Virus record (IMG/VR): IMGVR_UViG_3300047564_001761 | Span: 1-55,313 of that record | Reading direction: 5' to 3' (one strand) | DNA from: a virus | Lineage: Duplodnaviria; Caudoviricetes | DNA length: 55,313 nucleotides | In this document: positions 4,393-32,852 of the stretch, one piece after another | Layout: the number at the start of each line of letters is the position of its first letter | How positions within the stretch are numbered: position 1 is the first letter of the stretch | Program-made: the position numbers and the translations under genes | The notes under the pieces: model-generated | Databases searched by the model: none | What the model was told of the DNA's origin: nothing | Seen by the model: only the letters and a program-made list of their open reading frames with translations

Positions 4393-4990
4393 TGTGGATA
4401 ACTTGTGGATAACTATATAAAGAAAATTAATAAATAACTAATGTTTATATATGTTATAGTTATATGGGTAATAGCGCATATCAAAATATGAGACGTAATG
4501 TCAAATTTGGAGGGATAAAATATCAACATATGAGACCTATCATATTTGGAGAGACTTGTCAATAACTTGACCATATATATCTCATTATATGAGACAATAT
4601 TCCCGTGATTTTTGGGACTCATCGTAATGTTTTTTTGCATAAAAAATCCCAAATTTCACGGAGAAATTGGGATAAAATAGATTATAATTATATTATTTAA
4701 ATAGTTTTTCTAGAATTCTTTCAAGAAATATAAGCAGCTTATTAGACCTCTTATCTGTATAGTGCATAGGTTGTTTATATAGGTTAGAGAAGTATCTACG
4801 TGGCATTATTATTCCTCCTGCCGCCGTTCGGCGGCGGTGATCCAGAAGATCACCTTACTCCTAGTATAGTACATAGAATAATACCTTGTCAAATTCCCGT
4901 GATTTTTTAGATCATGTCGTAATGTCTAAATTATATAGATAATACTTATCCACAGAGATATCCACAGGTTGTGGATAAAGTTGTGGATAA
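4393..4990. promoter_or_regulatory. DnaA-box cluster flanking AT-rich non-coding island
   Basis: TGTGGATAA at 4393, 4404, 4970, 4982; TTATCCACA at 4946; ATATCCACA at 4958. Confidence 0.85.
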
Positions 4991-5047
4991 CTTTTATCAA
5001 ATTTATTCCCCAAATTCCAGTGATTTTTATCATGTTGACGTAATGTC
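4599..5047 (+). repeat. three imperfect ~33-37 bp direct repeats
   Basis: ATTCC(C/A)GTGATTTTT...CGTAATGT at ~4599, ~4892, ~5011. Confidence 0.75.
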
Positions 5048-5120
5048 ATTTATTTGATATGCTGCATTTTATATGCCGCACACAAACCCCAGCTTTGTCA
5101 AGCTGGGATCGTGCGTTATA

Positions 5121-5492
5121 TTATGCGTTTTGCGGGATACGGAATCCTAGTTTATCTAAGAGCTCTTGCCCCAAATGATACTGGCAGAATTCCTCAAATG
5201 AATGCCCGTCGATTTGCTTATTTACCATATCAATTTCTACAGTAAAGTCCCATAGATTTGTATTCTCTGGGTCCACCGCAAATAAACCAAAGCCCGTTTC
5301 TGAATTCCAGTCTTCGTTAATTAATTGGCTTACGATAATACGGGTTGCATAGGATGCATCGTTCCACCGTGGCTTTGCCATCCAGATTGCATGTGCGATT
5401 GATGACTCCCATTCAGTCTCGCCCCAATGTGAATATAGGGCCACTGCCTGAGATGTGCCATCGTTGAATACGTAATTGATACGTGCTCCCAT
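5121..5492 (-). CDS. hypothetical phage protein
   Basis: ORF track; AAGGAG RBS. Confidence 0.8.
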   Translation of the reverse strand: MGARINYVFNDGTSQAVALYSHWGETEWESSIAHAIWMAKPRWNDASYATRIIVSQLINEDWNSETGFGLFAVDPENTNLWDFTVEIDMVNKQIDGHSFEEFCQYHLGQELLDKLGFRIPQNA

Positions 5493-5495
5493 AAT

Positions 5496-5777
5496 TTATT
5501 CTCCTTGTTGTAGTGGGTTTGCCTTGAAGTATTTCTTCAATTCATTGTATGCTCCTACGATGTAGGAAACTGCGCTATCGTTTTTCTTTACTGTGATGTG
5601 TCCAAGTGCTGAGCCAATTGCGTAGGCAGTACCTAAATCATTAGCCTCATGTACAGGCTTGCCCTTATCACCAAGATAAGCAACCATGACCATAACACGA
5701 TAGCAGAGTGTGTTTAATTGTAGTTCGCCATCGGCTTCGTTAGCCCATGCCTGGATTTCGTTACTGATTGTAGTCAT
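5496..5777 (-). CDS. hypothetical protein
   Basis: ORF track; operon coupling. Confidence 0.7.
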   Translation of the reverse strand: MTTISNEIQAWANEADGELQLNTLCYRVMVMVAYLGDKGKPVHEANDLGTAYAIGSALGHITVKKNDSAVSYIVGAYNELKKYFKANPLQQGE

Positions 5778-6114
5778 CTAGATTAACCGCTTTCTCATCG
5801 TATTTGTAATTGGACCATTGTACTACAGGTGGCTCGTAGTTGTCAAGAATATCCTTGCCTGGACCCTCGTCTAGGACTATGGTATCTATCACACTGGCTA
5901 CCTCAACTGTATCGTTGTCTTTATTGTGGTAGTTATAGTATTTGAAATCAACTCCCCAATACTTTATCATTGTTAGAAATAGTTTCATTATTCGCCGCTG
6001 GACATTTGGTGGTTGCTTCATCACGTTCATGGCAAAGTCTGAGTCTTGGAATCTAATATCTGAAATTGAATCTACTAACTTTTCTACCGCCTTCTCTTCA
6101 TCTCTCTTAGCCAT
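5761..6114 (-). CDS. hypothetical protein
   Basis: ORF track; TTGACA...TAGAAT promoter and GGGAG immediately upstream. Confidence 0.75.
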   Translation of the reverse strand: MAKRDEEKAVEKLVDSISDIRFQDSDFAMNVMKQPPNVQRRIMKLFLTMIKYWGVDFKYYNYHNKDNDTVEVASVIDTIVLDEGPGKDILDNYEPPVVQWSNYKYDEKAVNLDDYNQ

Positions 6115-6180
6115 AACTCCCTATTCTACTAAAAATATGTGGGGGTGTCAAGTACCCACCCCCACCGCTATTAAATTATA

Positions 6181-6315
6181 TTACTTAGTGTTTGGTGCTT
6201 CAAAGACCTTACCTTCGGCCTCTGCATTGCGTAGTGCTTCTACCTGAGCACGTGTGAAACGTCCTCGTGCCCCAACTAGAAATCCTAGTTGCTCTAGATA
6301 TTCACGCTTTGTCAT
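6181..6315 (-). CDS. Lsr2-like DNA-binding domain microprotein (44 aa)
   Basis: manual translation MTKREYLEQLGFLVGARGRFTRAQVEAL..., RGR AT-hook-like motif; AAGGAG RBS; own promoter upstream. Confidence 0.65.
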   Translation of the reverse strand: MTKREYLEQLGFLVGARGRFTRAQVEALRNAEAEGKVFEAPNTK

Positions 6316-6394
6316 CCGCATTCTCCTTTTTGTTAGTTTGTGCTAATCCTACCACCATGATAGGAAACCTGTCAAGCTGTCTCATAATTTGAGA

Positions 6395-6784
6395 CTACTC
6401 TTCCTCTTCTCCGTCATACTCTTCGATAATGCCTTCATCAAGCATCCAGTCCCGTACAGCCTCGTACAGGTCCTCTGTCCCGTATTCCAGTGTGAACCCG
6501 TTCTTGTCCGCCTGTGTGAAGAACAGTTCCCACATCTCTTCTTCATCCATAGTTACGTTGTAATCAGGATCTCCGCCTTCACGGATGTCTTTTAAAATAG
6601 TTATTGCTACATCCCAAGTCCATACCCAAACCAGGGGCGGGAATAAACGAAGTTCCCCTATCTTATCAATGATTATATTGATATCACGGAATGTATCCTG
6701 CATGCGTGTTTTTTCCTGTAGATCCATATCAGTCTTCGTACCCATCAAAATACCCCTCTGCCCATAGGCCTTGTAAGAAATCAT
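6395..6784 (-). CDS. acidic hypothetical protein (start may be 6745)
   Basis: ORF track. Confidence 0.7.
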   Translation of the reverse strand: MISYKAYGQRGILMGTKTDMDLQEKTRMQDTFRDINIIIDKIGELRLFPPLVWVWTWDVAITILKDIREGGDPDYNVTMDEEEMWELFFTQADKNGFTLEYGTEDLYEAVRDWMLDEGIIEEYDGEEEE

Positions 6785-7054
6785 GAGCCATAACTAAATA
6801 GTTATGGATAGCAGGATTTTCATCAGCATTGACTAATAAGTCTGCTTGATAAACTCCATATGTCATATCTGCTAGATCCTTCTGTGTATAACCTAGCATT
6901 ATTCATTCCACCAATACTTAACAATTGTGTTTAAAGTAGTATGAATATGGCAGTCACAATCTTCACCGCCCATATTCTCGTGGAATTCTATATGAGAATA
7001 ATTATCCTCGTATATCTCGTTAACTAGTTCTTCGATAGTTCTCATGCCTGCTCC

Positions 7055-7588
7055 TTAGAAGTGGAAATCAACTGGGACGAGGAATTGTAGCATGGCGGTC
7101 TCAGGCTTGTCAAGTCTTTCCCGTAAATATCTCAAATCCGCAGTGTATTCCTTTTTGTCAAAGAAGGCGGAGTCAGGTATCCATTCGCCTGACATTAACT
7201 TACACATAGTATTAATATAGTAATTGTTAAAATCAAATCGGCTGTCGTCAGGTAGTTCTCCACTGTTACTAATATACTCAACAATGTCAGAGGTAAACTT
7301 ATCTAACTTTATCTTAGTTAGATATTGGTTGGCATTCTCAATACGATACTTAACAATACCGTCAATTATCTTATTAAACTCTTCAGGCTTTTCTGCATAT
7401 GAGATAATCATATTGGATGAATCTTCATATTGTGATTCAGACCAGCGACCACCGCCGACAACATGCCAGTCAGACCAATCGCAATTTCTAAATCCTGTTT
7501 CTTCTGACGGCTCTAAGAATGCCTGAACATCTGAGAAGGCCTCTTCCATATCTTGTGCTTCAACCGCAATGTAGTGGAGTGTGTGCAT
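7055..7588 (-). CDS. hypothetical phage protein
   Basis: ORF track; WSDWHVVGGGRW and terminal VDFHF motifs; promoter upstream. Confidence 0.8.
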   Translation of the reverse strand: MHTLHYIAVEAQDMEEAFSDVQAFLEPSEETGFRNCDWSDWHVVGGGRWSESQYEDSSNMIISYAEKPEEFNKIIDGIVKYRIENANQYLTKIKLDKFTSDIVEYISNSGELPDDSRFDFNNYYINTMCKLMSGEWIPDSAFFDKKEYTADLRYLRERLDKPETAMLQFLVPVDFHF

Positions 7589-7624
7589 TTTCCTGTGCTT
7601 TCTATTAGTTTATCGTAATGGGTA

Positions 7625-7680
7625 ATTCTACCATGCGGGACTGACATCTGTCCAGCCCAGCCAGTGTGATTAATATCACA
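7625..7680 (-). promoter_or_regulatory. promoter with perfect CRP-type box
   Basis: minus strand TGTGATATTAATCACA-N10-TGGACA-N18-TAGAAT. Confidence 0.75.
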
Positions 7681-7683
7681 AAG

Positions 7684-7896
7684 CTATGCGAAGATCGACC
7701 AGCCCTGGAAGTCTCCCTCATCCACGACATAGCGCTGAACGGCAGACCAAGCGGACTCCCCGTAGAAATACTTAGGGCGCTTGTTGGGGACGGTAACCTT
7801 GAAGAAACAATTATCTTCGTTGGCCTCGTATACGTCAATTGCTGTGTCCCCGTTATAAATAGGGAACCAGGTTACAGAATTTACTTTAGGTTTCAT
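7684..7896 (-). CDS. hypothetical protein, leaderless
   Basis: TTGACT-N18-TAGAAT-N6-ATG on minus strand. Confidence 0.75.
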   Translation of the reverse strand: MKPKVNSVTWFPIYNGDTAIDVYEANEDNCFFKVTVPNKRPKYFYGESAWSAVQRYVVDEGDFQGWSIFA

Positions 7897-8130
7897 GGCT
7901 GTATTCTACCACCCCGCATAGCCGTGAGTCAAGTTTGATCCCCGTAATGTGATCAAAGTCACAGGGGCCGCACCAGCTTTATAAAAAGCAGAAGGGCCAG
8001 GTCCCCCAACCTGGCCCCTCATGTAGGCATTCCCATATTTAACGACTTGGCGAAGCCTGACAGCCGTACCTACATCATCACCACTTACGTGATACATACT
8101 ATTTTACTTGACTGAAATAAATCTGTCAAG

Positions 8131-8349
8131 TTACTCCCACTTTAGTGTGTATCCCTTTACCCTAATGTTTCTGCCCATGTTAAACTTCTTCACGGCCTCT
8201 GATACAACTGCCTTGTCTTCATATTTAGTTATTGCTATGAAGTTATCAATTGCATCGCTGGCGGTGATACCCGCAAACATAAGATTGTTATTCTTACGAA
8301 TAATCCAAGCCATTAGAACTCCCCGTTCTCTAACATGGTAATAAGCCAT
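8131..8349 (-). CDS. hypothetical protein (start likely 8313)
   Basis: ORF track; GGGGAG before second Met. Confidence 0.6.
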   Translation of the reverse strand: MAYYHVRERGVLMAWIIRKNNNLMFAGITASDAIDNFIAITKYEDKAVVSEAVKKFNMGRNIRVKGYTLKWE

Positions 8350-8469
8350 TCGATTGCTTCTACCAATTCGTCGTCTATTGTTTGTTCTGCTTTTTCTGCC
8401 AATTGTTCTACAAGATCCTCACGAGATTGCTTGTAGCCATCGTGCCAGCCAGATGTGTAGTCTGACATA

Positions 8470-8697
8470 TTACTCCTTTTGATATGGATGATTTGGTTCG
8501 TACTCTGACAAATAAGTTTCTTTTAAACTGTACTTGTCTCTAATACGTGAGACCTTCTCAATGCTACCAGTTCCAATGTTGAATGTCAACGGGGGCATGA
8601 ACTCAGGGTCCAGCCCATTAATCTCAGCCTCCCAATAGGCCCTCTCAAGAGAGAGCCTATCAGGAGCGGTAAGTTCAAAATACATTATGCGTTCCAA
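8470..8697 (-). CDS. hypothetical protein
   Basis: ORF track; operon coupling. Confidence 0.65.
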   Translation of the reverse strand: MERIMYFELTAPDRLSLERAYWEAEINGLDPEFMPPLTFNIGTGSIEKVSRIRDKYSLKETYLSEYEPNHPYQKE

Positions 8698-9371
8698 TCA
8701 ACGTCGTGGTCTTCAACGGACCAGGAATCAACTGAGACGTCACCATGCCATGAATCAATACTTAGATTGTCACTTAAGAAGTAACGGGCATCGAAATCTT
8801 CTACTTCTTCAAGTGGGATATCGTAGTCTACTTCAACCTGAATAGTTGCAGTAATACGCACTGTTTGCTTTGGCTCGTGCCCAAGAATCTCGCAAAGGTC
8901 GTTTAGAACTTCTACCTTCTCATAGTTTGGGTTATACCAACCGTCAGCGTTTAGGTTATCAATAATGCTATTGACCTGTGTCTGAAGATTATTTAATCTA
9001 GTAGTTAACAACTGATTCTCATGAAGTTGATATTCTAAATCAACAGTCTTGATACTTGGGTAAATTGCCTCACCGTTGACGATAGACTTATATGTAATAA
9101 GACTATTAGGATTGTAGGTCTCAGGGACCGTTGGTGTTAGAATTGGTTCGTACTGATTTTCCATTTGATTACTTTCTGCTTGTAGGGACGAAGGCGCTAT
9201 TGTAGCACTTTCGGATGAGATATGCAACATATCTCGCCCACATGGACATGTGAGCTTTACCACACCAGATGGGAATCCAAACCCATCTGATGTAGTTACT
9301 TCGATCATAGTATCACACTCATCTGGGTCACAGATGAATGTGTACTTGCTAGAGATAATGTCAGACATCAT
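8685..9371 (-). CDS. hypothetical protein with N-terminal Zn ribbon
   Basis: CDPDEC...CPCG; ATGA coupling. Confidence 0.75.
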   Translation of the reverse strand: MMSDIISSKYTFICDPDECDTMIEVTTSDGFGFPSGVVKLTCPCGRDMLHISSESATIAPSSLQAESNQMENQYEPILTPTVPETYNPNSLITYKSIVNGEAIYPSIKTVDLEYQLHENQLLTTRLNNLQTQVNSIIDNLNADGWYNPNYEKVEVLNDLCEILGHEPKQTVRITATIQVEVDYDIPLEEVEDFDARYFLSDNLSIDSWHGDVSVDSWSVEDHDVDWNA

Positions 9372-10132
9372 GCATCTACCTTATCTACTAGAGACTTATG
9401 GATTTCGCATTCTGCCATTGCCTCTTCATCTTGCCATGAACCTTCGTTACATTCAGAGCAGAATTCACCGCATTCATTATCGCAGTAAGATAATGTATCA
9501 AAAGATTGGCAGGCGTAGCAACGATTCTCCCATTCTGCTAATTCTTTTACTTCACCACGTAGAATCTCATACTCTCCACCCCAGCCAGTTTCTTCTTCAA
9601 ACTCTAATGTGAGAAGAGAGTTGGGAACTAAGTTAGATAGTTTAGTTAGAACTGTGACGGCAGGAGACCAAGCAGTCTCATACTTATAAACAAGCCAGTT
9701 ATCCTCACCCTCTGACTTGTGTTCAACCAACTCAGTATTAGGATATTCATCCTCATCACGAACTGCTACATCCCACTTGGTTCCCCAGTTAGTATGATTC
9801 CAGTTATACCAATCCTTTTGAGTCTTAGCAAACTCGACGGACTTAGCAAACCAACTAGGGTCTTTCATATCTACACCATCACGAGCAGGCTGGCAGGCAT
9901 ACTCTTCATCAGTAATACCAGCATCCTTATATGAATAGATATTATGAAAAGCAAAGACAGGATTGTTGTATTCAACCTGAGTAATCTTAGTTGGGAATCC
10001 CATAGAACTAATATCACCCATGCCAAACGTTTCCTGCGCTAGTGTAAACGGACGGTTAAGTCTTTCTTTGATAGAATCAATCTCAGACTTAGGACCTTGG
10101 ATTGTTAATGTATTATATACCCAGTTTGGCAT
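9368..10132 (-). CDS. DUF1281/YubB (Api92-like) ferredoxin-like domain protein with Cys-rich tail
   Basis: MPNWVYNTL, WYNWNHTNWGTKWD, ETAWSP motifs. Confidence 0.75.
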   Translation of the reverse strand: MPNWVYNTLTIQGPKSEIDSIKERLNRPFTLAQETFGMGDISSMGFPTKITQVEYNNPVFAFHNIYSYKDAGITDEEYACQPARDGVDMKDPSWFAKSVEFAKTQKDWYNWNHTNWGTKWDVAVRDEDEYPNTELVEHKSEGEDNWLVYKYETAWSPAVTVLTKLSNLVPNSLLTLEFEEETGWGGEYEILRGEVKELAEWENRCYACQSFDTLSYCDNECGEFCSECNEGSWQDEEAMAECEIHKSLVDKVDA

Positions 10133-10165
10133 ATTATTACCTTTCGTAGTAGGAGGGGGCTTATT

Positions 10166-10600
10166 CTACACTGTTGCGACGGCGTTGTCAAGAACCATCT
10201 TGGATTGCCATAGCATACAGTTAGAATCTAAACGGTCACCGAATATACGTATATAATCAGCGATATCTTCTGTTTGATCAGTTAAGCAGGACTTCACGGT
10301 TTCTACTGAAATAAACACACGTCCATTCCATAGACCCATTGCACCTATATTAGTAGGAACTTCTAGGCAACCATATGTATCTTGCTCCCAGCCAACACCT
10401 TCTGAACAAACAAGGGCGTACTTATTATCACCGAAGACATTCTTTTCTTCAAGTGTAATCAGTAATAGATTATCTACTGTGCATTCGCTAAAGTCATTGC
10501 CATATTGTAAGCGATAGATATCATTAGCAATTGTAGCCAGTTTCTTTCCGTCCACAATTTGTCCAACATATCCGTTCATTCGTGATGCTCTGCGGTCCAT
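10166..10600 (-). CDS. hypothetical protein
   Basis: ORF track to 10789, but GAAAGG RBS and promoter support ATG at 10600. Confidence 0.7.
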   Translation of the reverse strand: MDRRASRMNGYVGQIVDGKKLATIANDIYRLQYGNDFSECTVDNLLLITLEEKNVFGDNKYALVCSEGVGWEQDTYGCLEVPTNIGAMGLWNGRVFISVETVKSCLTDQTEDIADYIRIFGDRLDSNCMLWQSKMVLDNAVATV

Positions 10601-10802
10601 ATATTTCCTTTCGATAAGGGTGAATTTTACCATTCTGCAGGGACCCGTGTCAAATCCGTGATGCCCGTAATAGACCCGTAATATGTGATTTTGAGCACAA
10701 ATGGTGCCGCCCCATTTTTTCAGCTTTGTCAAGTGCAACACGATCATGAAATAAAAAAAATACGGGAGCGAATTTCTTCGCCCCCGCATCTTTTATTTTT
10801 TA

Positions 10803-11822
10803 TTATGCGATTTGCATAATTCCCTTAACCACTTTTAGCAAGCGATTTTTTTCTGCGTTGATTTGTGCATCAAATCCTGATGCAGATGCAAGGATAGATT
10901 CGTTAGAACCACCACGAGCAGAGCGGTGCCAGTCAAGGCGTTCAGTAAGTGCATTAAACGCACCCCAAGCAGTTCCAGCAATCATGCCGTTAAACTCGCC
11001 TGTGTAAATATCGTTGAGAGTATCAACTTTATTTGTCCATTTGGTGATTGCGTTCTTTGCTTCACCCTTTGGCTTTGGATAAGCAGCGAGAATGATGTCG
11101 TTGAATTCCTGAGCGGTGACTTCCTTCTCATATAGAGAATTAGCCAACTTTGAGAATTCGTCCATGTATGCATTAGCAAGACCAAGAGTCTCACGTGCAA
11201 CTTGAATTTTTCCTTCTGCTGTTTGTGTGTGGCGAATCTTGAAAGATTGCTTAACGCCACCCTTCTTACGACCAACACCATTAAGTGCAAGGTTTAGAGT
11301 ATTAGCGCACACAACACGAACGGGAGTAATAGATGCCTGAATAGCAATAGACCCGTCATGAGATGTGTTGATGAGCAAATAAGTCTTCACCTTATCTGCT
11401 ACGCCCTGAGCGTCAATAACCGCTTCACGTTCAAGAGCAAGAGAGCCGAATACAACACGCCCTCCACGAATAGAGCCAGCAGTTTCCCAGCGTCCTCCAC
11501 CATCTAGAATGTTATCGCCGAATGAGAATAAATCTTCATTCTGCAATGGTACATAACGCTGACCAACTACGCCGAGAACGTCTGTTTGAGATGCGTCGGT
11601 AGGATTGGTACGCACTACGTACTGATATGATTTATCAGATGAGAGGTGATTTGGAATTTCCAAATCTTCAAGGCGAACGTTCCACCCGTCAAGATTTGCG
11701 AGAGATAGCATTTCGCCAGTAGTTACTTCATTTGTAAATACTGTTCCGAGACCATGCCAAGCAGGTTCTCTGAATGATGCGAATGAGGTTTTGCCATTTT
11801 GATTTTCTAGGTCGTGAGCCAT
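10803..11822 (-). CDS. DUF932 family phage/plasmid-like protein
   Basis: PAWHGLG, ETAGSIRGGR, YLLINTSHDGS, TPVRVVCANTL, IRHT, GTAWGAFNA. Confidence 0.88.
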   Translation of the reverse strand: MAHDLENQNGKTSFASFREPAWHGLGTVFTNEVTTGEMLSLANLDGWNVRLEDLEIPNHLSSDKSYQYVVRTNPTDASQTDVLGVVGQRYVPLQNEDLFSFGDNILDGGGRWETAGSIRGGRVVFGSLALEREAVIDAQGVADKVKTYLLINTSHDGSIAIQASITPVRVVCANTLNLALNGVGRKKGGVKQSFKIRHTQTAEGKIQVARETLGLANAYMDEFSKLANSLYEKEVTAQEFNDIILAAYPKPKGEAKNAITKWTNKVDTLNDIYTGEFNGMIAGTAWGAFNALTERLDWHRSARGGSNESILASASGFDAQINAEKNRLLKVVKGIMQIA

Positions 11823-12276
11823 AGTTTTCCTTTCGATTGTTTGAAGAGCCTATTTTAGCACAACCACCCCAGCGGAGTCAATTCATCTTAGTTAAATGTC
11901 CGAATTATCCTAGTATTTCCCGTGTGTTTAAAATCACACCCGTAAAACTTGACAAGATCAGTTTTTGGGGGCGGCACAGCTCAGGCTATTTGTCAATAGC
12001 CAAAGCGTCTTGCCATTCTGTGTCGTCTATTTTTGGCGTAGGGATAGATAATAAATTAACTATAACAGCAATTGGAAGAATAATAAAATAAATTACCAAC
12101 ACAACTGCAATTAACACGCCAAAGAAAGTGCCCATACCGTAGTAGAAATCCATTGCGTTATCCTATCACATTTTTTAGTCGTTGTACAATTGGCAGGTGA
12201 CACACGCACTCGCACACATAGTAATTATTTTGTTTACAATCATTGCACATATAATCAGATCTACACTGCCAGCCCA

Positions 12277-12999
12277 TTATTTTTTACTCGCAGAGAATCT
12301 AACATCGGCCTTACCATAAACACACAATCCGCATGATACGCAGGCGGACCCATTGCTAGAGATAAGAGGAATTTTCTTTAGGTTCTCAGGACACTTAGCG
12401 CCAGGCTTACCGATTAATTCTTTCATCTTGCTTTCAGTAGCGGCGAAAGTCTTACCTAGATATGCAAGACGAATACCCTCATAGTTAGTGCGTAAGTCTT
12501 CCGCAATTTCTGCATTCTCATCGTCGGTAGAATAGTAAAGAGATAGGTTTTCAATACCCTTAAGCATAATAGCAGCGGACTTTACACGTGTATATACCCA
12601 GAATTGAACATCGGGATGATTAAGAATAACATGCTTCCAGGCGAATGTATAAGTATCGTTAAAGAAATCTCCGTCCCAGTGGATACGGAATAACTTATCT
12701 GCCTTACGCTTATCGCAATCTTTTTTGAAGTCTTCGATCATTTCCATGAGTAGCGCTTCCATAGTATCATGGTCGGCGTCTTTTAATAATTCCCAGTTAT
12801 GTAGAAGAGTAGCCTTTACTCCCTTATAGACTTTTTCCAATTTGCCTGCATAGCAAACAGTCTCGCAGATAGACGTAGCACCAGGACATGAATAGGCTTT
12901 TCCTGCAGGTAATCCGAAGGTGTTGGCAATTGTTGGGGTTTTTCCATTAGGGGAGACGGCATTAGTTACTTTCCTATCATTAGAGCGCTTCAGTTTCAT
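12277..12999 (-). CDS. mycobacteriophage gp88-like protein (Cys-rich, Fe-S candidate)
   Basis: SCPGATSICETVCYA, FRIHWDGDF, WVYTR, C-terminal CP...CVSCGLC. Confidence 0.75.
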   Translation of the reverse strand: MKLKRSNDRKVTNAVSPNGKTPTIANTFGLPAGKAYSCPGATSICETVCYAGKLEKVYKGVKATLLHNWELLKDADHDTMEALLMEMIEDFKKDCDKRKADKLFRIHWDGDFFNDTYTFAWKHVILNHPDVQFWVYTRVKSAAIMLKGIENLSLYYSTDDENAEIAEDLRTNYEGIRLAYLGKTFAATESKMKELIGKPGAKCPENLKKIPLISSNGSACVSCGLCVYGKADVRFSASKK

Positions 13000-13046
13000 T
13001 AGGGGCCTTTCTTAGTGGGGGTGTAATTCTAGCATACTGCAGGGGT

Positions 13047-13181
13047 TTAATCAAGTTTATTAGCGTGTTTCTTTTTCCTAGTATAAACTTTCTTACTAGG
13101 AATAGCGGTAGCGCAATTGCTACGTCGTAGCTCAAGCACACGGCGTAATTCCTCACGGGTTTTCCTAGTTTTAGTAATCAT
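13047..13181 (-). CDS. small basic protein (44 aa), leaderless
   Basis: manual translation MITKTRKTREELRRVLELRRSN...; TATTAT-N6-ATG. Confidence 0.6.
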   Translation of the reverse strand: MITKTRKTREELRRVLELRRSNCATAIPSKKVYTRKKKHANKLD

Positions 13182-13318
13182 GCCGTAATAATAGCAGAAA
13201 TTCCAGCGTTAATCAAATCCTACCCGTAAGTAGCTCTGTGAGATTGATCACAGGTGCCGCAATTTTTTCAAGGGAAATGCCCCGCTAGAAAGAAAGGTAA
13301 CTAACGGGGCAAGATTGT

Positions 13319-13344
13319 GAGCAGTTTTGGCTCTTGCTCAGGAG
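13319..13344 (-). ncRNA. small pseudoknot motif copy
   Basis: CTC-CTGAGCAA-GAG-CC-AAAACTGCTC, just before terminator-like hairpin at ~13277-13311. Confidence 0.55.
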
Positions 13345-13421
13345 GTCTGCGTCTTTAGGTCGGCAGTAACCTTGCTCTATAGTATTTTTATTATCGCCCT
13401 AATCAGCCTGGCGAATATTTT

Positions 13422-13592
13422 TTACTTGCTTGTTTTCACCATTGCAAAACGGCGAGAACCATTAGCGAGAATTAGATTTACACGAGTAACCTTATTGCTA
13501 ATTGGAGAGAAGTTAGCAATACGACCTGTAACACCTGTCTTTGATGTTGTGAAAAGGTCTCCGATTTGATAAGTGTATCCGCCAAGAGTCAT
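13422..13592 (-). CDS. small hypothetical protein (56 aa), paralog of 14162-14308
   Basis: manual translation ...IGDLFTTSKTGVTG...; GAAAGG RBS. Confidence 0.7.
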   Translation of the reverse strand: MTLGGYTYQIGDLFTTSKTGVTGRIANFSPISNKVTRVNLILANGSRRFAMVKTSK

Positions 13593-13623
13593 TTATTTAT
13601 TTCCTTTCAGTAGTGGGTTGGTT

Positions 13624-13650
13624 GAGTAGTTTAGCGACATACTCAGGTCG
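13624..13650 (-). ncRNA. small pseudoknot motif copy
   Basis: CGAC-CTGAGTAT-GTCG-CT-AAACTACTC. Confidence 0.55.
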
Positions 13651-13658
13651 TAGATTAT

Positions 13659-14075
13659 TTAGAGATACTTAGCAATTTGCTTCATGGTTGAAGCATTTAC
13701 TGTTTCCTCATCTGTCATCTTTAGAATTGTGAGAGCATTTGTGATGTCCTCTACAATTTCATTGTATGTGTGCTGGTGCATAATTGTGAAATCACGCTCA
13801 GGCTCTTTAGGGAAATCGGTTTCCTTTACAATCAAATCAAAATCAACATTAAGAGAGTTGTTCCAAGAGCGATAAGATGTGCGGAAGTTTTCAGCCTTCT
13901 TGATGTTTGCAATAGCAAAATCTTGAACTTCCTTACGCCACTTTTCTCTTGACTTCTCATACTTTGCTTCGTTTGCACCCTGCTCAGCATAGTCTTTCTT
14001 GATTGTTGCCAACTTTGTTTCCAAAGCCTTGATTACCTTTGGTGTTGCCACCTTTACTGTGATTGCTCTGCTCAT
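13659..14075 (-). CDS. hypothetical protein
   Basis: ORF track; AGGA RBS; promoter at 14111-14140. Confidence 0.8.
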   Translation of the reverse strand: MSRAITVKVATPKVIKALETKLATIKKDYAEQGANEAKYEKSREKWRKEVQDFAIANIKKAENFRTSYRSWNNSLNVDFDLIVKETDFPKEPERDFTIMHQHTYNEIVEDITNALTILKMTDEETVNASTMKQIAKYL

Positions 14076-14161
14076 GTTATTCCTGTTCTTTTAGTGGGTT
14101 ATTAGGGAGTATTTTAGCAGATGGGCTGAACTATTGTCCAGCCCACCCGCTGTGATTTACA

Positions 14162-14308
14162 TTACTTTGCTGTTGTCCAGCGGTCTTGACCATTGACGGA
14201 TAGTCTGATACGATAAGAGCCATTATCGTTCTTGACTACTTCCTGAACCTCACCTGTTACGCCTGACTTAGCAGTTGTAAAGGTTTCACCGATTTTTGGA
14301 GTTGCCAT
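14162..14308 (-). CDS. small hypothetical protein (48 aa)
   Basis: manual translation MATPKIGETFTTAKSGVTG...; GAAAGG RBS. Confidence 0.7.
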   Translation of the reverse strand: MATPKIGETFTTAKSGVTGEVQEVVKNDNGSYRIRLSVNGQDRWTTAK

Positions 14309-14588
14309 TTGTGCTTCCTTTCTGTTGTTGTTGAGAGAGAATTATAGCAAAACCCACCGACATACACAAATCCAAAATGCTATCAAATCGGACATTTTCC
14401 TGTGATAAAAAACACATTAGCGTAACTTGACTTTCGCCAAAAAATCGGCGGCAAATTCCAGGGATTCCTGTGAGATCTTAGTAATGCATGTAATAGCAAG
14501 TAGTAGCTCTGTGCGGCGCTGTCGGGCGTGTCTAAATTAGTTGAAAGTTAAACCAATTTGATTTAACTTTCAACCTTTTTAGATCGTG

Positions 14589-14879
14589 TTACTTTCCTGA
14601 AACTTTTCCATCTCGCCAAAAGTTTTTAGTCCAAAGTTTTCCATTTGGTTCTGCTAAATTATAAGTTGCGTATTCTTCAGCGTCACCGAAATCAACGCAC
14701 TTATTAAAATCATTTACTGCGTCAAGTGCAAAGTTATAGCGTTGTGTATTTACTAATTCACCATCATAGTAAGTTGTTAGTGCGTAGTCGTATTCCAAAG
14801 TTTCCCCCTTGTTGTAGTTCATAAATGTACCGCCTCTCTCAAACCAGTTTCGTCTTTTTTCTAATTCAGTAATTGTCAC
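14589..14879 (-). CDS. hypothetical protein (start may be 14822)
   Basis: ORF track. Confidence 0.65.
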   Translation of the reverse strand: MTITELEKRRNWFERGGTFMNYNKGETLEYDYALTTYYDGELVNTQRYNFALDAVNDFNKCVDFGDAEEYATYNLAEPNGKLWTKNFWRDGKVSGK

Positions 14880-15043
14880 TACTCATTAACCCAGTCAATG
14901 GTTAGTTCATCAGATAGTTCTGCGATACAATCGCAAGGCTCTACATCATAGTCGTATTCATTTCCAAAGAAAATAAATCCTGCTCCACCGCACTCATCAC
15001 ATGGAGCAGAAACAATCTCGATTAGTTCTTTTACATTAGCCAT
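14879..15043 (-). CDS. small Zn-binding hypothetical protein
   Basis: MANVKEL... with GAAAGG RBS; CDECGGAG...CDC. Confidence 0.65.
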   Translation of the reverse strand: MANVKELIEIVSAPCDECGGAGFIFFGNEYDYDVEPCDCIAELSDELTIDWVNE

Positions 15044-15187
15044 TTTAGTTTTCCTTTCGTGTTGTTGTTGGAATTGTAGCAGATAGCACTGACAATGCCT
15101 CCGCCTTGCTTGCTTCACGTTGAGCAATAACGTGAGCCTTGAATTCATCTAGGTTCATTTAGTTTTCCTTTCGTTAGAAAATTGTGT

Positions 15188-15243
15188 GTGAGTTCTTACT
15201 TACGACATTGGGCGAGAACACTCACGAAACTGCCCCTGTTTCG
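15188..15243 (-). ncRNA. intergenic two-hairpin pseudoknot candidate
   Basis: CGAAAC-AGGGGCA-GTTTCG then GTGAG.GTTCT...AGAACTCAC, with loop GCCC complementary to GGGC. Confidence 0.45.
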
Positions 15244-15250
15244 ATTTTAG

Positions 15251-15454
15251 TTAATCGGAATTCTTAACCGCAACTGTGCGGAAAGTTGTAGAAATACGAT
15301 TAGTAGGCTGTACCTCTACTAGATAGGTATCGCAACCTTCATACCATACCGCTTTAGGGTGTGGCTCGGCGTTGATAATAATTCCTTCAAGGGAATTGGA
15401 GTAATACTGCTTACCTACTAGGAGGTTACGGACAGAGTATACATTTGCTGACAT
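15251..15454 (-). CDS. hypothetical protein
   Basis: MSANVY... with GAAAGG RBS. Confidence 0.7.
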   Translation of the reverse strand: MSANVYSVRNLLVGKQYYSNSLEGIIINAEPHPKAVWYEGCDTYLVEVQPTNRISTTFRTVAVKNSD

Positions 15455-15841
15455 TTTATTTCCTTTCTTTATACCCGCAATTATAGCGGATAGGTCTGAC
15501 AAATTATTAAGTTTTGGGGGGTGTGTCGTTGTGATTTATATCACAACGCACCTTCCTGAAATAAACCTATTTCAAGGTCTAGCAATTCGGACGGGGTGGC
15601 GTCTGATAAATCAACCCAGCCAGCACCCTCTTCATCTATTCTGAATATTTCAATATAACCCATAGTTAGTTATCCTTTCTTTATGTCTGAAATTATAGCA
15701 TGGGGGACTGACAAATTTCTTGTTACCTCTCAGTATTTGAGACAAAATTCCTGTGATAAAAATCACATGATCATAAATTCCTGTGAAAAAGTTATCCACA
15801 GAATAATCCCCAGACACGCCCGACCTCGTGGGGCGGCAAAT

Positions 15842-15857
15842 TCGAACAGATGTTCGA
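15842..15857. promoter_or_regulatory. LexA (SOS) box, actinobacterial consensus
   Basis: TCGAAC-AGAT-GTTCGA. Confidence 0.7.
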
Positions 15858-16423
15858 ACTGCATTTATAATTATGAATTGTTATGCATAATTATTCAAAG
15901 TAGAACGGATCAAATTCTCCATCGAATAATTCAGCGTCAGCTGAATTTTCAAATTCAAATTCATCAGTTTCATTTATTACTTCTGGAGTAGTAAATAATT
16001 CTGAATTATCCTCGTAGTAATTATCCCAATTATATTTGGGCTGTTCCCATGACATTGTGTAACTCATAGATAGTTCTCCTTACATTCTGAACAAACGAAA
16101 TTAATTTTGCAATAGCAGCCAACGGCGGAAAGTAGATTATCATTCTGATAATCGTAGTAATCATCACGATAACTCATTCTGAAACCTCCTCAACATGGAA
16201 AGCGTTAAACTTATCGAGTTCATTCTCGCTAAGTGGGTAGAGTGTTTTATTAAGTGCAAAGATTGCGCTTAGTTCATCTTGTGCCTCTACGACATAAGAT
16301 ATAAGTACATTATATTTACTCATTTATATTCTCCTTTCGAGATAAGTTCATCTAGTTTTAAAACTAGTTCATCTTGAGGTTCATCAAGATAGTTTTTTAA
16401 TTCTGAATTTTTTACGAAGTCTA

Positions 16424-16600
16424 TCATTTAGATACCTTCCAATCTGTCCACATTGGTAGACGCTCAGGGTCGGTATCGTTATACCAACGCTCAATATTGT
16501 TTTCACAAACTTCACAAAATGTGAATTGTGTATCTGCATATTCTGAGATAGCAGGTTTGAATGGTGTGTGCTCTGCACACTTGATAATTGTTGAATTCAT
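16424..16600 (-). CDS. small Cys/His hypothetical protein (58 aa)
   Basis: manual translation MNSTIIKCAEH...CEVCENN...; GAAAGG RBS. Confidence 0.65.
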   Translation of the reverse strand: MNSTIIKCAEHTPFKPAISEYADTQFTFCEVCENNIERWYNDTDPERLPMWTDWKVSK

Positions 16601-17202
16601 TTGAATTCCTTTCTAGTTTGAGAACCTTTCTCAACTTTCTTTATAATGGAATTATAACAGGGGGGTCTGACATTTACTGACTGGTAATGCCACAAATCGG
16701 ACATTTTGAAATGTGATGTAGGTCATGTGGATAACTCACGCTCAAATTTCCGTGTGATTTAAATCACGTGCATAAACCTGTGGAGGACACGCCCGAGTGC
16801 GGGGGCCGCAAAATTTTCGCAGCTTGTCAAGTTAACACGCCGAGAAAATTTTGTTTTTTATTTTTTTTTATAATGTGATCAGAATTCCAAAAGCTAAACA
16901 AAATAAAAAGAAAATAAAAGTCTCTTTCATTTCATGCATGCTTCCCAAAATCTATCGGAATCAAATCTTTCGTTATCTTCCGAAAACATAACGGCGAAAT
17001 CATCCACCAAATCTTCATAAGTAAAACTGTTACCGATTAAATCTTTATAAGTAGAAAGAATCTCGGCGGTCTTTACATAGTCTTTACGTGTCATCATATT
17101 AATTTAGTCCGTTCTCTCGTAGGTCCTTGATTACTGCAATTAGTAGGGGAATGGTAACGCCTGCCAAGATTAATTGGACGGCGGTTGTTAGTAGTCTATT
17201 CA

Positions 17203-17403
17203 TTAGAAATCATCTCCGAACATGTCTAGGATTTCATTTACCTGTTCATCTGTTAGGTGTTCTGTCTCTATAGCCTTAGAGAAACCGAAGACATCTTCTT
17301 CCTCTTCCTCTACAGGGTATTCATCTAAGTAGGTGTAGGCATCTGCTACATCCTCTTGAATTGTGTCCCATTTAGACATTTTACTATTATCGAATGAGTA
17401 CAT
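17203..17403 (-). CDS. highly acidic small protein
   Basis: ORF track; GGAGG RBS. Confidence 0.7.
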   Translation of the reverse strand: MYSFDNSKMSKWDTIQEDVADAYTYLDEYPVEEEEEDVFGFSKAIETEHLTDEQVNEILDMFGDDF

Positions 17404-17653
17404 TACTTAGCCTCCAATTTCTGTACATTAGCGGTAAACTTTACCTTCTTACCTAAGTCGCTAGCATTTAGCGAATTGATTAGGTGGTCAATTTCTTTTG
17501 TATCTGTTGCAACATTGTCAATAGATAGTAGACGAGAGCCTTGCCAAATTGAGTAAGTGATTTTCATTTATTTATTTCCTATTCTTTTAGTTTTATTTAT
17601 TGAGATTATTCTAGGGGATAGACTTAAGAAAGTCAAGTTTATTTAGTGTGTTG

Positions 17654-17869
17654 TTACTCACACTGTCCGCATGGACACTGTGGGAACTCTCGTTCCTGCT
17701 TGATACGATTAGCAAGAGCGATAACCTTGTTATAGGTATCGGCGGAGGCGCCTCTAAAAGAGACCACCTCTCCATTTGCTACCATTTGAGCAGCGAGAGT
17801 AATTCTAGCGTTAAGGTCAAGGTGACCGAACTTAGAGTGGTTAATTTTGTTTTTATCTAGTGTAGTCAT
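17654..17869 (-). CDS. hypothetical protein
   Basis: ORF track; GAGGT RBS; own promoter. Confidence 0.7.
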   Translation of the reverse strand: MTTLDKNKINHSKFGHLDLNARITLAAQMVANGEVVSFRGASADTYNKVIALANRIKQEREFPQCPCGQCE

Positions 17870-17975
17870 TTGGTGACCACCTTTCTTTAGTTTAGTTTAT
17901 TTTTATTTCTATTAAATTGTTATGGCTTAAGCCTAGCAGACCAAAGGCGGAAAGTCAAGCCTATTTAGTGTGAGG

Positions 17976-18152
17976 TTAATCACACTGGCTAGGGGACTTA
18001 GAGTAAGAGTAAGCCATAGCCTCTCTATCGAACCATGCGAACATCTGTTCGGTTTTATGAGACTTGTCTACTTTACAGAACATGTCCCAAGAGTCGCCTG
18101 TCCAATTACAGGACTGGCACTTACTAACTTGATGTGATAAAACTTTTGTCAT
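17976..18152 (-). CDS. small Cys-containing hypothetical protein (58 aa)
   Basis: manual translation MTKVLSHQVSKCQSC...; GAAAGG RBS. Confidence 0.6.
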   Translation of the reverse strand: MTKVLSHQVSKCQSCNWTGDSWDMFCKVDKSHKTEQMFAWFDREAMAYSYSKSPSQCD

Positions 18153-18374
18153 TTTGACCTTTCTAGTTTAGAGACCTTCTCTAACTTTCTAATAGTGTAA
18201 CTATAACACCCCCCACTGACATTTTCAACTTGAAAAACGGGTAAATCGGACATTATTTTTGTGATTTACACCACATGGATCTATGGGCGCACTATTTGTC
18301 CGAATTATACTAAAAAAAGTATGCATCATACAAGAAAAATATATATTCACATTTTTATAAATCTAATATTCTAG

Positions 18375-18404
18375 TTGACTAAAAATATAGGGCGGTGATA
18401 TAAT
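18375..18404 (+). promoter_or_regulatory. SigA-type promoter (extended -10), leaderless
   Basis: TTGACT-N18-TATAAT with TGn, 6 nt to ATG at 18411. Confidence 0.75.
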
Positions 18405-26948: not shown

Positions 26949-26958
26949 GAGATAATAG

Positions 26959-30627: not shown

Positions 30628-30646
30628 TAAATAAGGAAAATCTATA

Positions 30647-32239: not shown

Positions 32240-32274
32240 AGAATTTGGTATAATTCTATAAGGAGTGTGAGCTA

Positions 32275-32838
32275 ATGTCATTAAAACGCTATGATGGAAC
32301 GCAATGGGTTACCGTTGCTGGTTCACGTCCAGGCCCTACAGGTCCAGCAGGACCTCAAGGCCCAGCAGGTTCACAGGGGCCAGCAGGCCCCGCAGGTGCG
32401 GCAGGCCCAGCAGGACCACAAGGTCCGCAAGGAGTCGCAGGCCCAGCAGGTTCACAAGGAATTCAGGGTCCTATTGGTCCAACAGGTGAAAGAGGCTCAA
32501 AGTATTTTACTGGCTCATTGAATCCAGTTTCAACTTCTGGCTACTTCACTGGAGATCAGTTTTTAAACACCACAACTGGTGACCTATTTACATTTAGTGC
32601 ACTTCCAACACCAGCTTGGACACTAGCGGATAATATTATTGGTCCAGCAGGACCGCAAGGCCCAGCAGGACCAACAGGTCCTACTGGAGAAATTGTTGTG
32701 GCGGACATTGAAAGAAGAGTATCTGCATATGAGTTAGATATTCTGCTAAACTTAGGTATATACTTTCCAAAGTATAATACCCTTGCAAATCTTTCAACAG
32801 TTACTGGAACAATTTCAGCAACAAGCTTTATTCTATAA
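32275..32838 (+). CDS. collagen-like (Gly-X-Y) protein
   Basis: long GPA/GPQ triplet runs. Confidence 0.85.
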
Positions 32839-32852
32839 GATGGAGAAAATGA

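Follow-up and report, generated by a model that had tools for sequence, protein, structure and literature searches.

Phased CRP/GlxR-type boxes upstream of predicted promoters in the presumed early region of an uncultured phage

Results

CRP/GlxR-type boxes in a leftward gene block

The window analyzed here is the complete 55,313-nucleotide stretch of IMG/VR virus record IMGVR_UViG_3300047564_001761 (positions 1 to 55,313). Positions 4800–18400 contain a minus-strand, leftward block of ~45 small open reading frames (ORFs) with strong Shine-Dalgarno sites (GAAAGGA) and ~19 promoter-like sites. This block is presumed to be the early, host-takeover region. Its promoters appear to be sigma-A-like, with a -10 hexamer that is often extended and either a -35 hexamer or the sequence TGTCAG placed 10 nt upstream of the -10. 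We defined a box as the 16-bp inverted repeat TGTGA-N6-TCACA and counted mismatches against that consensus; d denotes the distance from the start of a box to the start of the -10 hexamer, which is a consensus call that marks a predicted start.

Six perfect boxes, beginning at 7665, 7948, 13237, 15530, 15752 and 17969, were present in the whole window against 0.07 expected, a number that none of 100 shuffles reached and that confirms the count in a preliminary description of this DNA. With up to one mismatch allowed, we found 14 boxes where 2.5 were expected, a number that again none of the 100 shuffles reached; 13 of these boxes fall within 7665–18275 and the remaining one lies at 35004. All 13 sites of the preliminary description are real, but it overlooked a 1-mismatch box at 9249; the extra site that it placed at 16754 exists with one mismatch and begins at 16753. 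Together with these two, the leftward block holds ~15 copies. The inverted repeat of a CRP/GlxR-type operator exceeds chance both in the window and in related viruses.

The leftmost perfect box (7665–7680; TGTGATATTAATCACA in the minus-strand reading) precedes the -10 hexamer TAGAAT at 7625–7630 (d = 50; inferred centre ~-54.5). A second perfect box (7948–7963) precedes a promoter with -35 TTGACT and -10 TAGAAT (7903–7908); its d of 55 makes it the sole site off the helical ladder described below. A terminator-like hairpin at 7991–8020 lies directly upstream of this box. The newly recognized 1-mismatch box at 9249–9264 is on the ladder (d = 60) before the extended -10 TGcTACAAT at 9199–9204; it falls within a longest-ORF call (8685–9371) whose real start may be further downstream. 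The 1-mismatch box at 10684–10699 is followed by TTGACA-18-TAAAAT (-10 at 10624–10629, d = 70). Its spacer contains tandem 11-bp TATTACGGG repeats, and another terminator-like hairpin (10755–10794) lies upstream. The DUF932 gene (10803–11822) is preceded by a 1-mismatch box at 11923–11938 (-10 TAAAAT at 11852–11857, d = 81), and the GP88-family gene (12277–12999) lies downstream of a perfect box at 13237–13252 (-10 TATTAT at 13188–13193, d = 59).

Two sites initially described as weak carry two mismatches each. In one (14151–14166), the right half-site alone is intact and the promoter reads TGGACA-18-TAAAAT (-10 at 14111–14116, d = 50). The other (16712–16727; -10 TATAAT at 16651–16656, d = 71) shares its promoter with the second, 1-mismatch box at 16753–16768 (d = 112, in phase); a perfect DnaA-type box at 16726–16734 overlaps the weak site. 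Between them lie a 1-mismatch box at 14401–14416 (extended -10 TGcTATAAT at 14341–14346, d = 70), with the motif ATGTCCGATTT in its spacer, and two perfect boxes. These occupy 15530–15545 (TGTCAG-N10-TATAAT, -10 at 15480–15485, d = 60) and 15752–15767 (TGTCAG-N10-TGcTATAAT, -10 at 15692–15697, d = 70). At the right end of the block, a 1-mismatch box at 17647–17662 (TTGACT-17-TAGAAT, -10 at 17608–17613, d = 49) is followed by a perfect box at 17969–17984 (TTGACT-17-TAGGCT, with a poor -10 at 17930–17935, d = 49) and by a 1-mismatch box at 18260–18275 (TGTCAG-N10-TGtTATAGT, -10 at 18200–18205, d = 70), whose spacer again contains ATGTCCGATTT. Some of these units are paralogous cassettes: 7665 with 14151, 17647 with 17969, and 14401 with 16712 and 18260. 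About 6 of the ~19 strong leftward promoters lack any box.

Boxes and promoters are in helical phase

Subtracting 16 from the d values of the 13 originally listed sites reproduced every distance first reported (34, 39, 54, 65, 43, 34, 54, 44, 54, 55, 33, 33 and 54 nt). The claim that 12 of the 13 fall on a ~10.5-bp ladder withstood a Rayleigh test at that period (R = 0.81, p = 5e-5). When paralogues were collapsed into nine families, p was 0.003, and 0.014 after a scan of periods from 9 to 12 bp. The two added sites are both in phase, which brings the total to 14 of 15. Enrichment, phasing and the related viruses all support the placement of the boxes on one helix face upstream of minus-strand promoters. 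Spacing that is quantized to whole turns implies that the regulator always lies on the same side of the polymerase.

As in class I activation, the boxes lie upstream of the -35 position in whole-turn steps, both in the window and in the virus family. On the assumption that the -10 hexamer spans -12 to -7, their centres fall at ~-54, -64.5, -74.5 and -84.5. The class I optima of E. coli are -61.5, -71.5, -82.5 and -92.5; the phage register is not equal to these, and the offset of ~3 bp agrees with that noted earlier.

Conservation of the boxes and their spacing in related viruses

Across 80 related virus loci (1.31 Mb), we found 329 perfect boxes, whereas four control palindromes occurred 3, 0, 2 and 0 times; at least one perfect box is present in 78 of the 80 loci. 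All 25 perfect boxes of the four complete relatives are confined to a single block of 7–11 kb. The d values of 95 strict promoter clusters fell at 48–50 (n = 17), 58–61 (n = 18), 69–72 (n = 23), 79–82 (n = 24) or elsewhere (n = 13). Thus, 82 of the 95 occupy four rungs (R = 0.73 near 10.1 bp), a value of R attained by none of 20,000 random draws. The rungs contain 4, 3, 6, 7, 4 and 4 spacer groups that are unrelated at 60% identity, and the median spacer identity at d = 60–81 is near-random (0.32–0.38). The presence of several unrelated groups per rung indicates that the spacings arose independently. Boxes with one mismatch occupy the same rungs as perfect ones. Promoters of orthologous DUF932 genes show d = 70–72 (n = 14), 78–82 (n = 39) or 66 (n = 1), which reveals that orthologues switch rungs without intermediates.

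Among the 482 promoters of the main type (TGTCRG-N10) in these relatives, 199 have a box with at most one mismatch, compared with 0 of 482 in two controls; 249 have no box even at two mismatches. The description of the array as a whole regulon was overstated, given these 249 and the ~6 boxless promoters of the window. Other conserved motifs, namely ATGTCCGATTT, GAGCGTCTCA and TTACGGG, lie between box and promoter, and these could be the real effectors instead of the boxes. In some relatives, two boxes abut each other at d ~97, off the ladder. Strain variants join promoter and leader modules across 1.1–2.6 kb in contigs from RNA libraries, which constitute the entire RNA evidence and in which 5' ends are not visible.

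The 79 imperfect on-ladder boxes reveal which bases are constrained. Mismatches numbered 29 at half-site position 1, 15 at position 2 (G), 3 at position 3 (T), 7 at position 4 (G) and 46 at position 5. The GTG/CAC core is thus under the strongest constraint, with greater tolerance at the outer bases, as in CRP/GlxR-type operators, and T/A occupies the centre of the spacer. By these sequence measures, agreement with the internal preferences of CRP-family sites is supported. An exact match in half-site, 6-bp spacer, GTG core and central T/A is unlikely to be due to chance. A site of the NtcA type (GTA-N8-TAC) was rejected; base 4 of the half-site stays G (7 mismatches in 79 imperfect boxes), and the phage carries WhiB and lacks psbA.

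Identity of the phage and its relatives

We identify the virus as an uncultured freshwater actinophage with kinship to the Streptomyces phages of Stanwilliamsviridae. Marker genes, hallmark similarity and synteny all point in this direction: all four complete relatives carry WhiB; PASTA, GP88 and DUF932 domains were detected; and the portal protein shows 60.8% identity along 100% of its length. On the basis of WhiB in the four relatives and the 61% portal identity, an enterobacterial phage was rejected. The cultured members Comrade (NC_048728) and Bmoc (NC_055842) have portals 60–61% identical, share the DUF932 and GP88 genes, and follow the gene order of the window, in which small genes and ThyX run leftward and are followed by glycosyltransferase, RNR and portal genes running rightward. 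In contrast to the window phage, they show no box enrichment (5 boxes versus 4 controls and 5 versus 1, at up to one mismatch). The window phage also carries cyanophage-like virion genes and has a lower GC content (38.8%, compared with 45.6% and 55.7% in the stretches of Comrade and Bmoc examined).

Candidate regulators in phage and host

The preliminary description raised the possibility of a CRP/FNR-family protein encoded by the phage. A search for PF13545 and PF00027 yielded no match in the window or the four complete relatives, whereas control genomes responded, which makes such a protein unlikely. No sigma-70 r2 or class III adenylate-cyclase genes were found in the phage, and none of 40 ORFs scanned in the leftward block of the window matched a Pfam DNA-binding family. 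For most early ORFs, no family could be recognized. A domain scan was also made of 147 ORFs of one complete relative, for which the best 25 of 48 matched families were examined.

The host would be an actinobacterium, an assignment at the level of phylum; a search of named genomes matched only phage contigs binned into metagenome-assembled genomes of three phyla. According to PMC7999487, the consensus of GlxR is TGTGA-N6-TCACA, and PMC4117774 describes ChIP sites of M. tuberculosis CRP with an E. coli-like motif that cluster -60 to -40 from start sites. These motifs indicate that the host phylum uses sites of this type. The 201 Actinomycetota genomes sampled contain 461 boxes compared with 57 reversed controls, or ~2 boxes per genome. 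A cNMP-binding domain is encoded by 168 of the 201; the 33 without one at E<=1e-8 are mostly small (1.3–2.2 Mb). Only 1 of 12 small actinobacterial genomes gave a strong HTH_Crp_2 match, and all eight small genomes with 33–47% GC lack both cNMP-binding and Crp domains. Should the host be a streamlined, low-GC freshwater actinobacterium, it might be devoid of CRP.

Discussion

We consider it somewhat better than an even chance (roughly 55%) that the boxes are operators, as predicted here, for a dimeric regulator of CRP specificity, probably a host protein of the CRP/GlxR family, which acts in class I-like fashion before host-RNA-polymerase promoters of the leftward block. The best candidate binder is a host CRP/GlxR-type regulator that would behave like a class I activator. 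Such a regulator, already in the cell at infection, would bind the boxes; the whole-turn spacing would let the bound protein meet polymerase from a constant side and contact it through the alpha C-terminal domain, the route used by class I activators. Expression of some of the first phage genes would thereby be coupled to the CRP state of the host. We infer the identity of the binder, its action as an activator and not a repressor, where transcription starts, the early timing and any role of cAMP. The arrangement suggests an early gene block of a phage that is switched by one dimeric regulator.

That regulator might be supplied by the phage. A phage-encoded or virion-delivered protein outside the CRP family could bind the palindromes and activate the promoters or later shut them off, its CRP likeness reflecting convergence or deliberate mimicry. 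The box system is particular to this lineage, being absent from Comrade and Bmoc, the sampled small low-GC actinobacterial genomes lack cNMP and Crp domains, and a novel binder could hide among the early ORFs of no recognizable family. We nevertheless regard this explanation as doubtful: the match to CRP is too exact to be likely by chance, the scanned early ORFs include no Pfam DNA-binding family, and a location upstream of the -35 fits an activator available from the outset, when a phage early protein has not yet been made. The more specific proposal of a protein brought by the phage that converged on the CRP operator, drives the phased phage promoters, and competes for or takes over host CRP sites is somewhat less probable still. 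If true, it would be consistent with a host that is a streamlined freshwater actinobacterium and has lost CRP.

Host CRP could also bind mainly to be titrated from host promoters, to repress, or only to bend DNA. This is quite unlikely, even though the sites are very dense (6 perfect boxes in ~10 kb versus ~2 per sampled host genome), many have the perfect consensus and hence high affinity, and the double boxes of some relatives lie off the ladder. For phage T1, PMC6737242 reports that the pir, dam and recE promoters are repressed by cAMP-CRP. A pure sponge would need neither helical phasing nor linkage to promoters, and the boxes lie upstream of the core promoter, not over it. We consider it very improbable that the boxes are passengers of recombining promoter cassettes in the style of T4-type phages, with the ladder reflecting a few ancestral modules instead of selection. 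Paralogous cassettes do exist, and the RNA-library variants do join promoter and leader modules. However, each rung holds several spacer groups of near-random similarity, 1-mismatch boxes also obey the ladder, orthologues jump rungs without intermediates, and the mismatch pattern is that of purifying selection on the GTG core.

The phage boxes share with class I sites of the CRP/GlxR type (E. coli CAP, C. glutamicum GlxR, M. tuberculosis CRP) the 16-bp palindrome, the GTG core, the 6-bp spacer, the location upstream of the -35, and face-dependent spacing in ~10-bp steps. They differ in that they reside on a virus at ~1000 times the density in the host, with a binder that is so far a candidate; in their four rungs, with centres ~3 bp away from the optima in E. 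coli; and in the frequent replacement of the -35 of the partner promoter by TGTCAG 10 nt before the -10.

The promoter-early stem-loop (PeSL) cassettes of T4-type phages, which Arbiol et al. reportedly described in 2010, are said to consist of a hairpin and a sigma-70 promoter and to serve as recombination joints. They would resemble the present units as repeated terminator-plus-promoter modules before small early ORFs, whereas their definition is not known to include a transcription-factor operator or phasing.

Two other phage systems offer parallels. T4-like cyanophages carry 1–16 predicted sites per genome for NtcA, a CRP-family protein, through which the cyanophage was proposed to exploit the physiological state of its host (Sullivan et al. 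2010, PMC3037559). As in the present case, a lytic phage bears numerous predicted sites for a global regulator of its host that belongs to this family. The cyanophage sites are GTA-N8-TAC and lie scattered among genes with a wide range of functions, and the portions of PMC3037559 consulted report neither a ladder nor clustering in one block. In T1, direct action of host CRP on phage promoters was established by experiment; the account in PMC6737242 concerns a small number of repressed promoters in a phage of enterobacteria, with no phased upstream array.

CRP-type boxes cluster in the leftward gene block

The window contains six perfect copies of the 16-bp palindrome TGTGA-N6-TCACA, which start at positions 7665, 7948, 13237, 15530, 15752, and 17969 (boxes are named by their start). 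Only 0.07 perfect copies were expected, and none of 100 dinucleotide-preserving shuffles contained six. With one mismatch allowed, the number rises to 14 compared with 2.5 expected, a count equalled in none of 100 shuffles. Thirteen of these 14 boxes lie within 7665–18275; the remaining box at 35004 is compatible with a chance occurrence. These counts strengthen the observation of CRP-type boxes made in the preliminary description. All 13 sites listed there were recovered, including two weak boxes with two mismatches each (14151 and 16712), and the site it had called extra was found at 16753, where it forms a second box before the 16712 promoter with a predicted centre near -116.5. That list had missed a 1-mismatch box at 9249. 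When the minus strand is read, each box stands upstream of a promoter-like site that is followed by a strong Shine-Dalgarno sequence (GAAAGGA) and then a small ORF. Strong terminator-like hairpins at 7991–8020 and 10755–10794 each precede one box, which indicates units ordered as terminator, box, promoter, and small genes.

The promoters take two forms. The first contains a -35 hexamer with a 17–18-bp spacer, and the box ends 10 bp upstream of the -35 element, giving a distance from box start to -10 hexamer start (d) of 49–50. The second lacks a -35 element and instead has a TGTCAG element 10 nt upstream of an extended -10, with d of 60, 70, or 80. Examples of TGTC(A/G)G-N10-TAnnnT promoters whose -10 has a TGn extension and which lack a -35 at 17 bp occupy 15480–15501, 15692–15713, 16651–16672, and 18200–18221. 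This promoter form is unusual and totals 482 unique contexts in the family of related loci (L005–L084). A consensus promoter scan of the window was weakly enriched (62 sites compared with 45.9 +/- 7.2 in shuffles). About half of the TGTC(A/G)G-type promoters in the family lack a box, which argues that the box is a modulator of a subset of promoters rather than a promoter component. Thus, the proposal that a whole early regulon is under this control holds in that boxes precede promoters of the leftward block (window 4800–18400, minus strand), but not in its extent. Early timing of the block would follow only by analogy: its ORFs are small, its promoters are of host type, and its position can be compared with that in cultured relatives.

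Boxes are quantised on the DNA helix

For the 13 sites of the preliminary description, d is 50, 55, 70, 81, 59, 50, 70, 60, 70, 71, 49, 49, and 70; subtraction of 16 reproduces the distances given there exactly. The two added sites, 9249 (d=60) and 16753 (d=112), are both in phase. The helical phasing claimed for these sites proved significant in a Rayleigh test (R=0.81 at 10.5 bp, p=5e-5). Several cassettes in the window are paralogous (7665 and 14151; 17647 and 17969; 14401, 16712, and 18260). Merging them left nine families, for which R was 0.76 with p=0.003, or p=0.014 when the period was free over 9–12 bp.

The same ladder emerged from the relatives. Unique box contexts, with a confident promoter call in 213 of 274, were grouped into 95 strict sequence clusters, whose modal d fell at 48–50 (17 clusters), 58–61 (18), 69–72 (23), 79–82 (24), or elsewhere (13). 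The cluster ladder has R=0.73 with a period near 10.1 bp, a value of R that none of 20,000 random draws equalled with the period free, and the raw histogram without clustering shows the same peaks. In a mirror control, the flank of each box opposite the promoter was scanned for -10-like hexamers, and small peaks appeared at 53 (n=11) and 60 (n=13). When spacer sequence beyond the core promoter was grouped at 60% ungapped identity, d=49, 50, 60, 70, 80, and 81 gave 4, 3, 6, 7, 4, and 4 unrelated groups, respectively, and median spacer identity is 0.32–0.38 for d=60–81. The presence of several unrelated spacer groups on each rung indicates that the rungs do not each descend from one ancestral cassette.

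With the -10 hexamer placed at -12 to -7, boxes would be centred at about -54, -64.5, -74.5, and -84.5, all upstream of the core promoter and on one helix face. This arrangement resembles class I activation; however, the centres differ in register by about 3 bp from the optima for class I sites in E. coli. We consider it very likely (probability about 0.9) that the boxes constitute a CRP-type operator system that depends on helix face. A regulator bound upstream on one face would touch RNA polymerase in class I style through the alpha C-terminal domain and would thereby modulate a subset of promoters in the terminator-box-promoter-small-gene units. Alternatively, the same geometry could act through a phased DNA bend. 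The first rung lies within the -60 to -40 range in which site-to-start distances of M. tuberculosis CRP are described as clustering (PMC4117774).

The box system is conserved in a large uncultured lineage

Relatives were gathered with the 339-aa DUF932 protein of the window, and 80 related loci with 80–84% identity were taken from at least 465 related virus contigs, some of which are complete at 113–119 kb. The 80 loci (1.31 Mb) contain 329 perfect boxes compared with 3, 0, 2, and 0 copies of four control palindromes, and 78 of the 80 have at least one. In four complete relatives (113–119 kb), all 25 perfect boxes lie inside one 7–11-kb block. The apparent direct terminal repeat of one complete relative (G004) proved to be a mere 127-bp end overlap, and a position of the boxed block at a physical genome end is therefore not claimed.

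In the reverse direction, boxes were sought 40–115 nt upstream of the 482 unique contexts of the main promoter type. Perfect boxes were found in 111, boxes with one mismatch in 88, and boxes with two mismatches in 34; shuffled upstream regions and a reversed palindrome yielded zero boxes with up to one mismatch. The 1-mismatch boxes, which had no part in defining the ladder, occupy the same rungs (60, 70–72, and 79–81). The promoter of the DUF932 gene retains at least one box with up to two mismatches in 57 of 63 unique upstream regions. A promoter was called in 62 of these, and d was 70–72 (n=14), 78–82 (n=39), or 66 (n=1); orthologues thus sit on rungs, indicating that indels between them are whole turns. 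Mismatches in imperfect boxes fall mostly at half-site positions 5 (46) and 1 (29) and rarely at G2 (15), G4 (7), or T3 (3), a pattern that indicates selection on the core. At the centre of the spacer, both positions favour T/A. Tolerant positions 5 and 1 together with a T/A spacer centre are features of CRP-family sites.

Cultured Streptomyces phages show no such enrichment: with up to one mismatch, Comrade has 5 boxes compared with 4 controls and Bmoc 5 compared with 1, scattered genome-wide. Judged from these genomes, the box system is an innovation of the uncultured lineage.

Identity of the phage

The virus contig that forms the window has an estimated completeness of 46%, and megablast of 12 kb against GenBank phages gave no match. 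Its partial portal is 60.8% identical over the full length to those of Streptomyces phages of the Stanwilliamsviridae, and its gene order (leftward small genes and ThyX, then rightward glycosyltransferase, RNR, and portal) is shared with Comrade. The window also encodes a PASTA-domain protein, a mycobacteriophage GP88-family protein, and DUF932. All four complete relatives carry a WhiB gene, whose use as a marker of freshwater actinophages is established (PMC6802176; PMC10202952). These features point to an actinophage that is kin to the cultured Streptomyces phages. RNA libraries that hold the phage are labelled freshwater, which indicates fresh water as its source.

One 1165-aa virion protein is 37–39% identical to structural proteins of T4-like cyanophages. 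The cyanophage identity this might suggest was ruled out by the lack of a psbA match (0 of 4 complete relatives) and the presence of WhiB. Large virion and tail-fibre-like genes (25455–36350) are placed between RNR and portal, and the genome would thus appear to be a mosaic of cyanophage-like virion genes inside an otherwise Streptomyces-phage-like genome. The relative G004 contains eleven ORFs with 2OG-Fe(II) oxygenase domains, most in a tandem run of genes for 220–260 aa (L102:4461–13312); the window has a single such ORF at 45101–45802.

Candidate regulators

The suggested wiring to host cAMP-CRP or a CRP/FNR-family protein is supported in part by CRP-type, face-dependent operators, but the phage Crp gene it allowed for was not found: PF13545 (HTH_Crp_2) and PF00027 (cNMP_binding) matched nothing in the window or in four complete relatives, and control genomes responded. 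Searches of the phage for sigma-70 region 2 and class III cyclase genes found none, and 40 leftward-block ORFs of the window matched no DNA-binding family in Pfam. The Pfam scan of G004 (147 ORFs) covers the best 25 of 48 families, and a helix-turn-helix protein could therefore be encoded there.

The best reading, which we rate somewhat above even odds, is that host CRP/GlxR binds the boxes. The GlxR consensus is TGTGA-N6-TCACA, and a change of a site towards it is described as raising binding and expression (PMC7999487). An E. coli-like palindrome is reported in 97% of 191 M. tuberculosis CRP ChIP peaks (PMC4117774), and the CAP recognition helix RETVGR is described as reading G2 and G4 of TGTGA (PMC10187061). 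In 201 sampled Actinomycetota genomes, which include unpublished genomes (G008, G025, G055, G089, G095, G127, G155, and G181), we counted 461 boxes compared with 57 reversed controls, with at least one box in 136 genomes. The cNMP-binding domain is absent (E<=1e-8) from 33 of the 201, mostly small genomes of 1.3–2.2 Mb; 20 listed genomes without it hold 10 boxes compared with 6 reversed controls by hand count. The excess of boxes over control thus seems to track the presence of a cNMP-binding protein.

A streamlined, low-GC freshwater actinobacterium, if it is the host, may possess no CRP. Both domains are lacking in 8 of 8 small genomes with 33–47% GC (four listed with zero, and four assigned by their absence from the matching genomes, among 13 unlisted ones without a match). 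A strong HTH_Crp_2 match occurs in 1 of 12 genomes of 1.3–1.5 Mb (G012); its recognition helix is PETLSR rather than the RETVGR of CAP (PMC10187061), and it was not accepted as a clear CRP orthologue. Base composition is no firm guide to the host. GC is 45.6% and 55.7% in the stretches retrieved from the cultured relatives and near 72% in their Streptomyces hosts, so this phage group can sit far below its host in GC. A protein atlas searched for the host returned viral RNR clusters only, and a genome-contig scan yielded only contigs of phage origin, which had been binned into MAGs labelled Acidimicrobiaceae, Chitinophagaceae, and Beijerinckiaceae. Twelve small genomes were compared for paired DnaA-box patterns, which gave no clue to the host.

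Precedents and implications

Earlier work has already connected phages with CRP-family regulators of their hosts. Sites for NtcA are predicted in cyanomyoviruses at 1–16 per genome in one study (PMC3037559), and promoters of phage T1 are described as repressed by cAMP-CRP (PMC6737242). What is new here is the clustering of canonical CRP operators, which stand at helically quantised distances ahead of promoters in a single gene block and are conserved across a large uncultured lineage. No account of such a phage-borne array emerged from full-text searching of a library that covers few subscription journals.

RNA libraries from four freshwater studies contain the leftward block. If host CRP binds the boxes, part of the first transcription of an abundant group of freshwater actinophages would depend on the regulator through which the host controls carbon and energy globally. 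The outcome of infection in lakes would then be tied mechanistically to the physiology of the host. The rotational geometry of CRP-type activation in Actinobacteria is poorly known. A single operator that recurs on four rungs separated by about 10 bp, and is followed by dozens of unrelated spacers, provides a natural spacing series that would define this geometry, seemingly about 3 bp from that of E. coli.

Neighbouring motifs and RNA-library contigs

Between box and promoter, ATGTCCGATTT occurs in the window spacers of boxes 14401, 16712, and 18260 and in relatives. It is found in either orientation (74 forward contexts and 55 reverse occurrences), and its conservation in the DUF932 promoter alignment exceeds that of the box; it is probably a site for a second factor. 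In the relatives, whenever a box lay up to 80 nt upstream of GAGCGTCTCA (30 of 30 cases), the motif stood exactly 22 nt downstream of the box start; it is almost exclusively on the gene strand (35 forward contexts and 1 reverse occurrence). TTACGGG/TCACGGG repeats number six in the leftward block and zero elsewhere in the window (10630–10683, 7090–7100, 4600–4615, 4895–4910, and 5015–5030). In the spacer of the 10684 promoter they stand in tandem, repeating every 11 bp, and further copies lie beside the cluster of DnaA boxes.

Perfect DnaA-type boxes (TTATCCACA) number seven in the window compared with 0.70 expected, with DnaA-type boxes at 4393–4412, 4946–4990, 15792–15800, and 16726–16734. 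Two adjoin an AT-rich stretch (4413–4470), and 4946–4990 comprises three perfect boxes and one with a single mismatch at 12-bp spacing. These boxes may mark a candidate origin at which phage replication would employ host DnaA. In many relatives, the DUF932 promoter is preceded by similar boxes.

The leftward block is matched at 90–99% identity by contigs from four metatranscriptome runs; these contigs carry no 5' ends, strand, or level, may include DNA carry-over, and give no signal either way for uncovered parts. Some contigs join distant positions: 14075 to 16651 (freshwater runs X2 and X3), 14069 to 15186 (X1), and 14075 to 15178 (X2). Such joins (14069–16651) suggest strain variants in which the gene cassettes separating promoter and leader modules are missing, and they resemble modular shuffling at regulatory cassettes.
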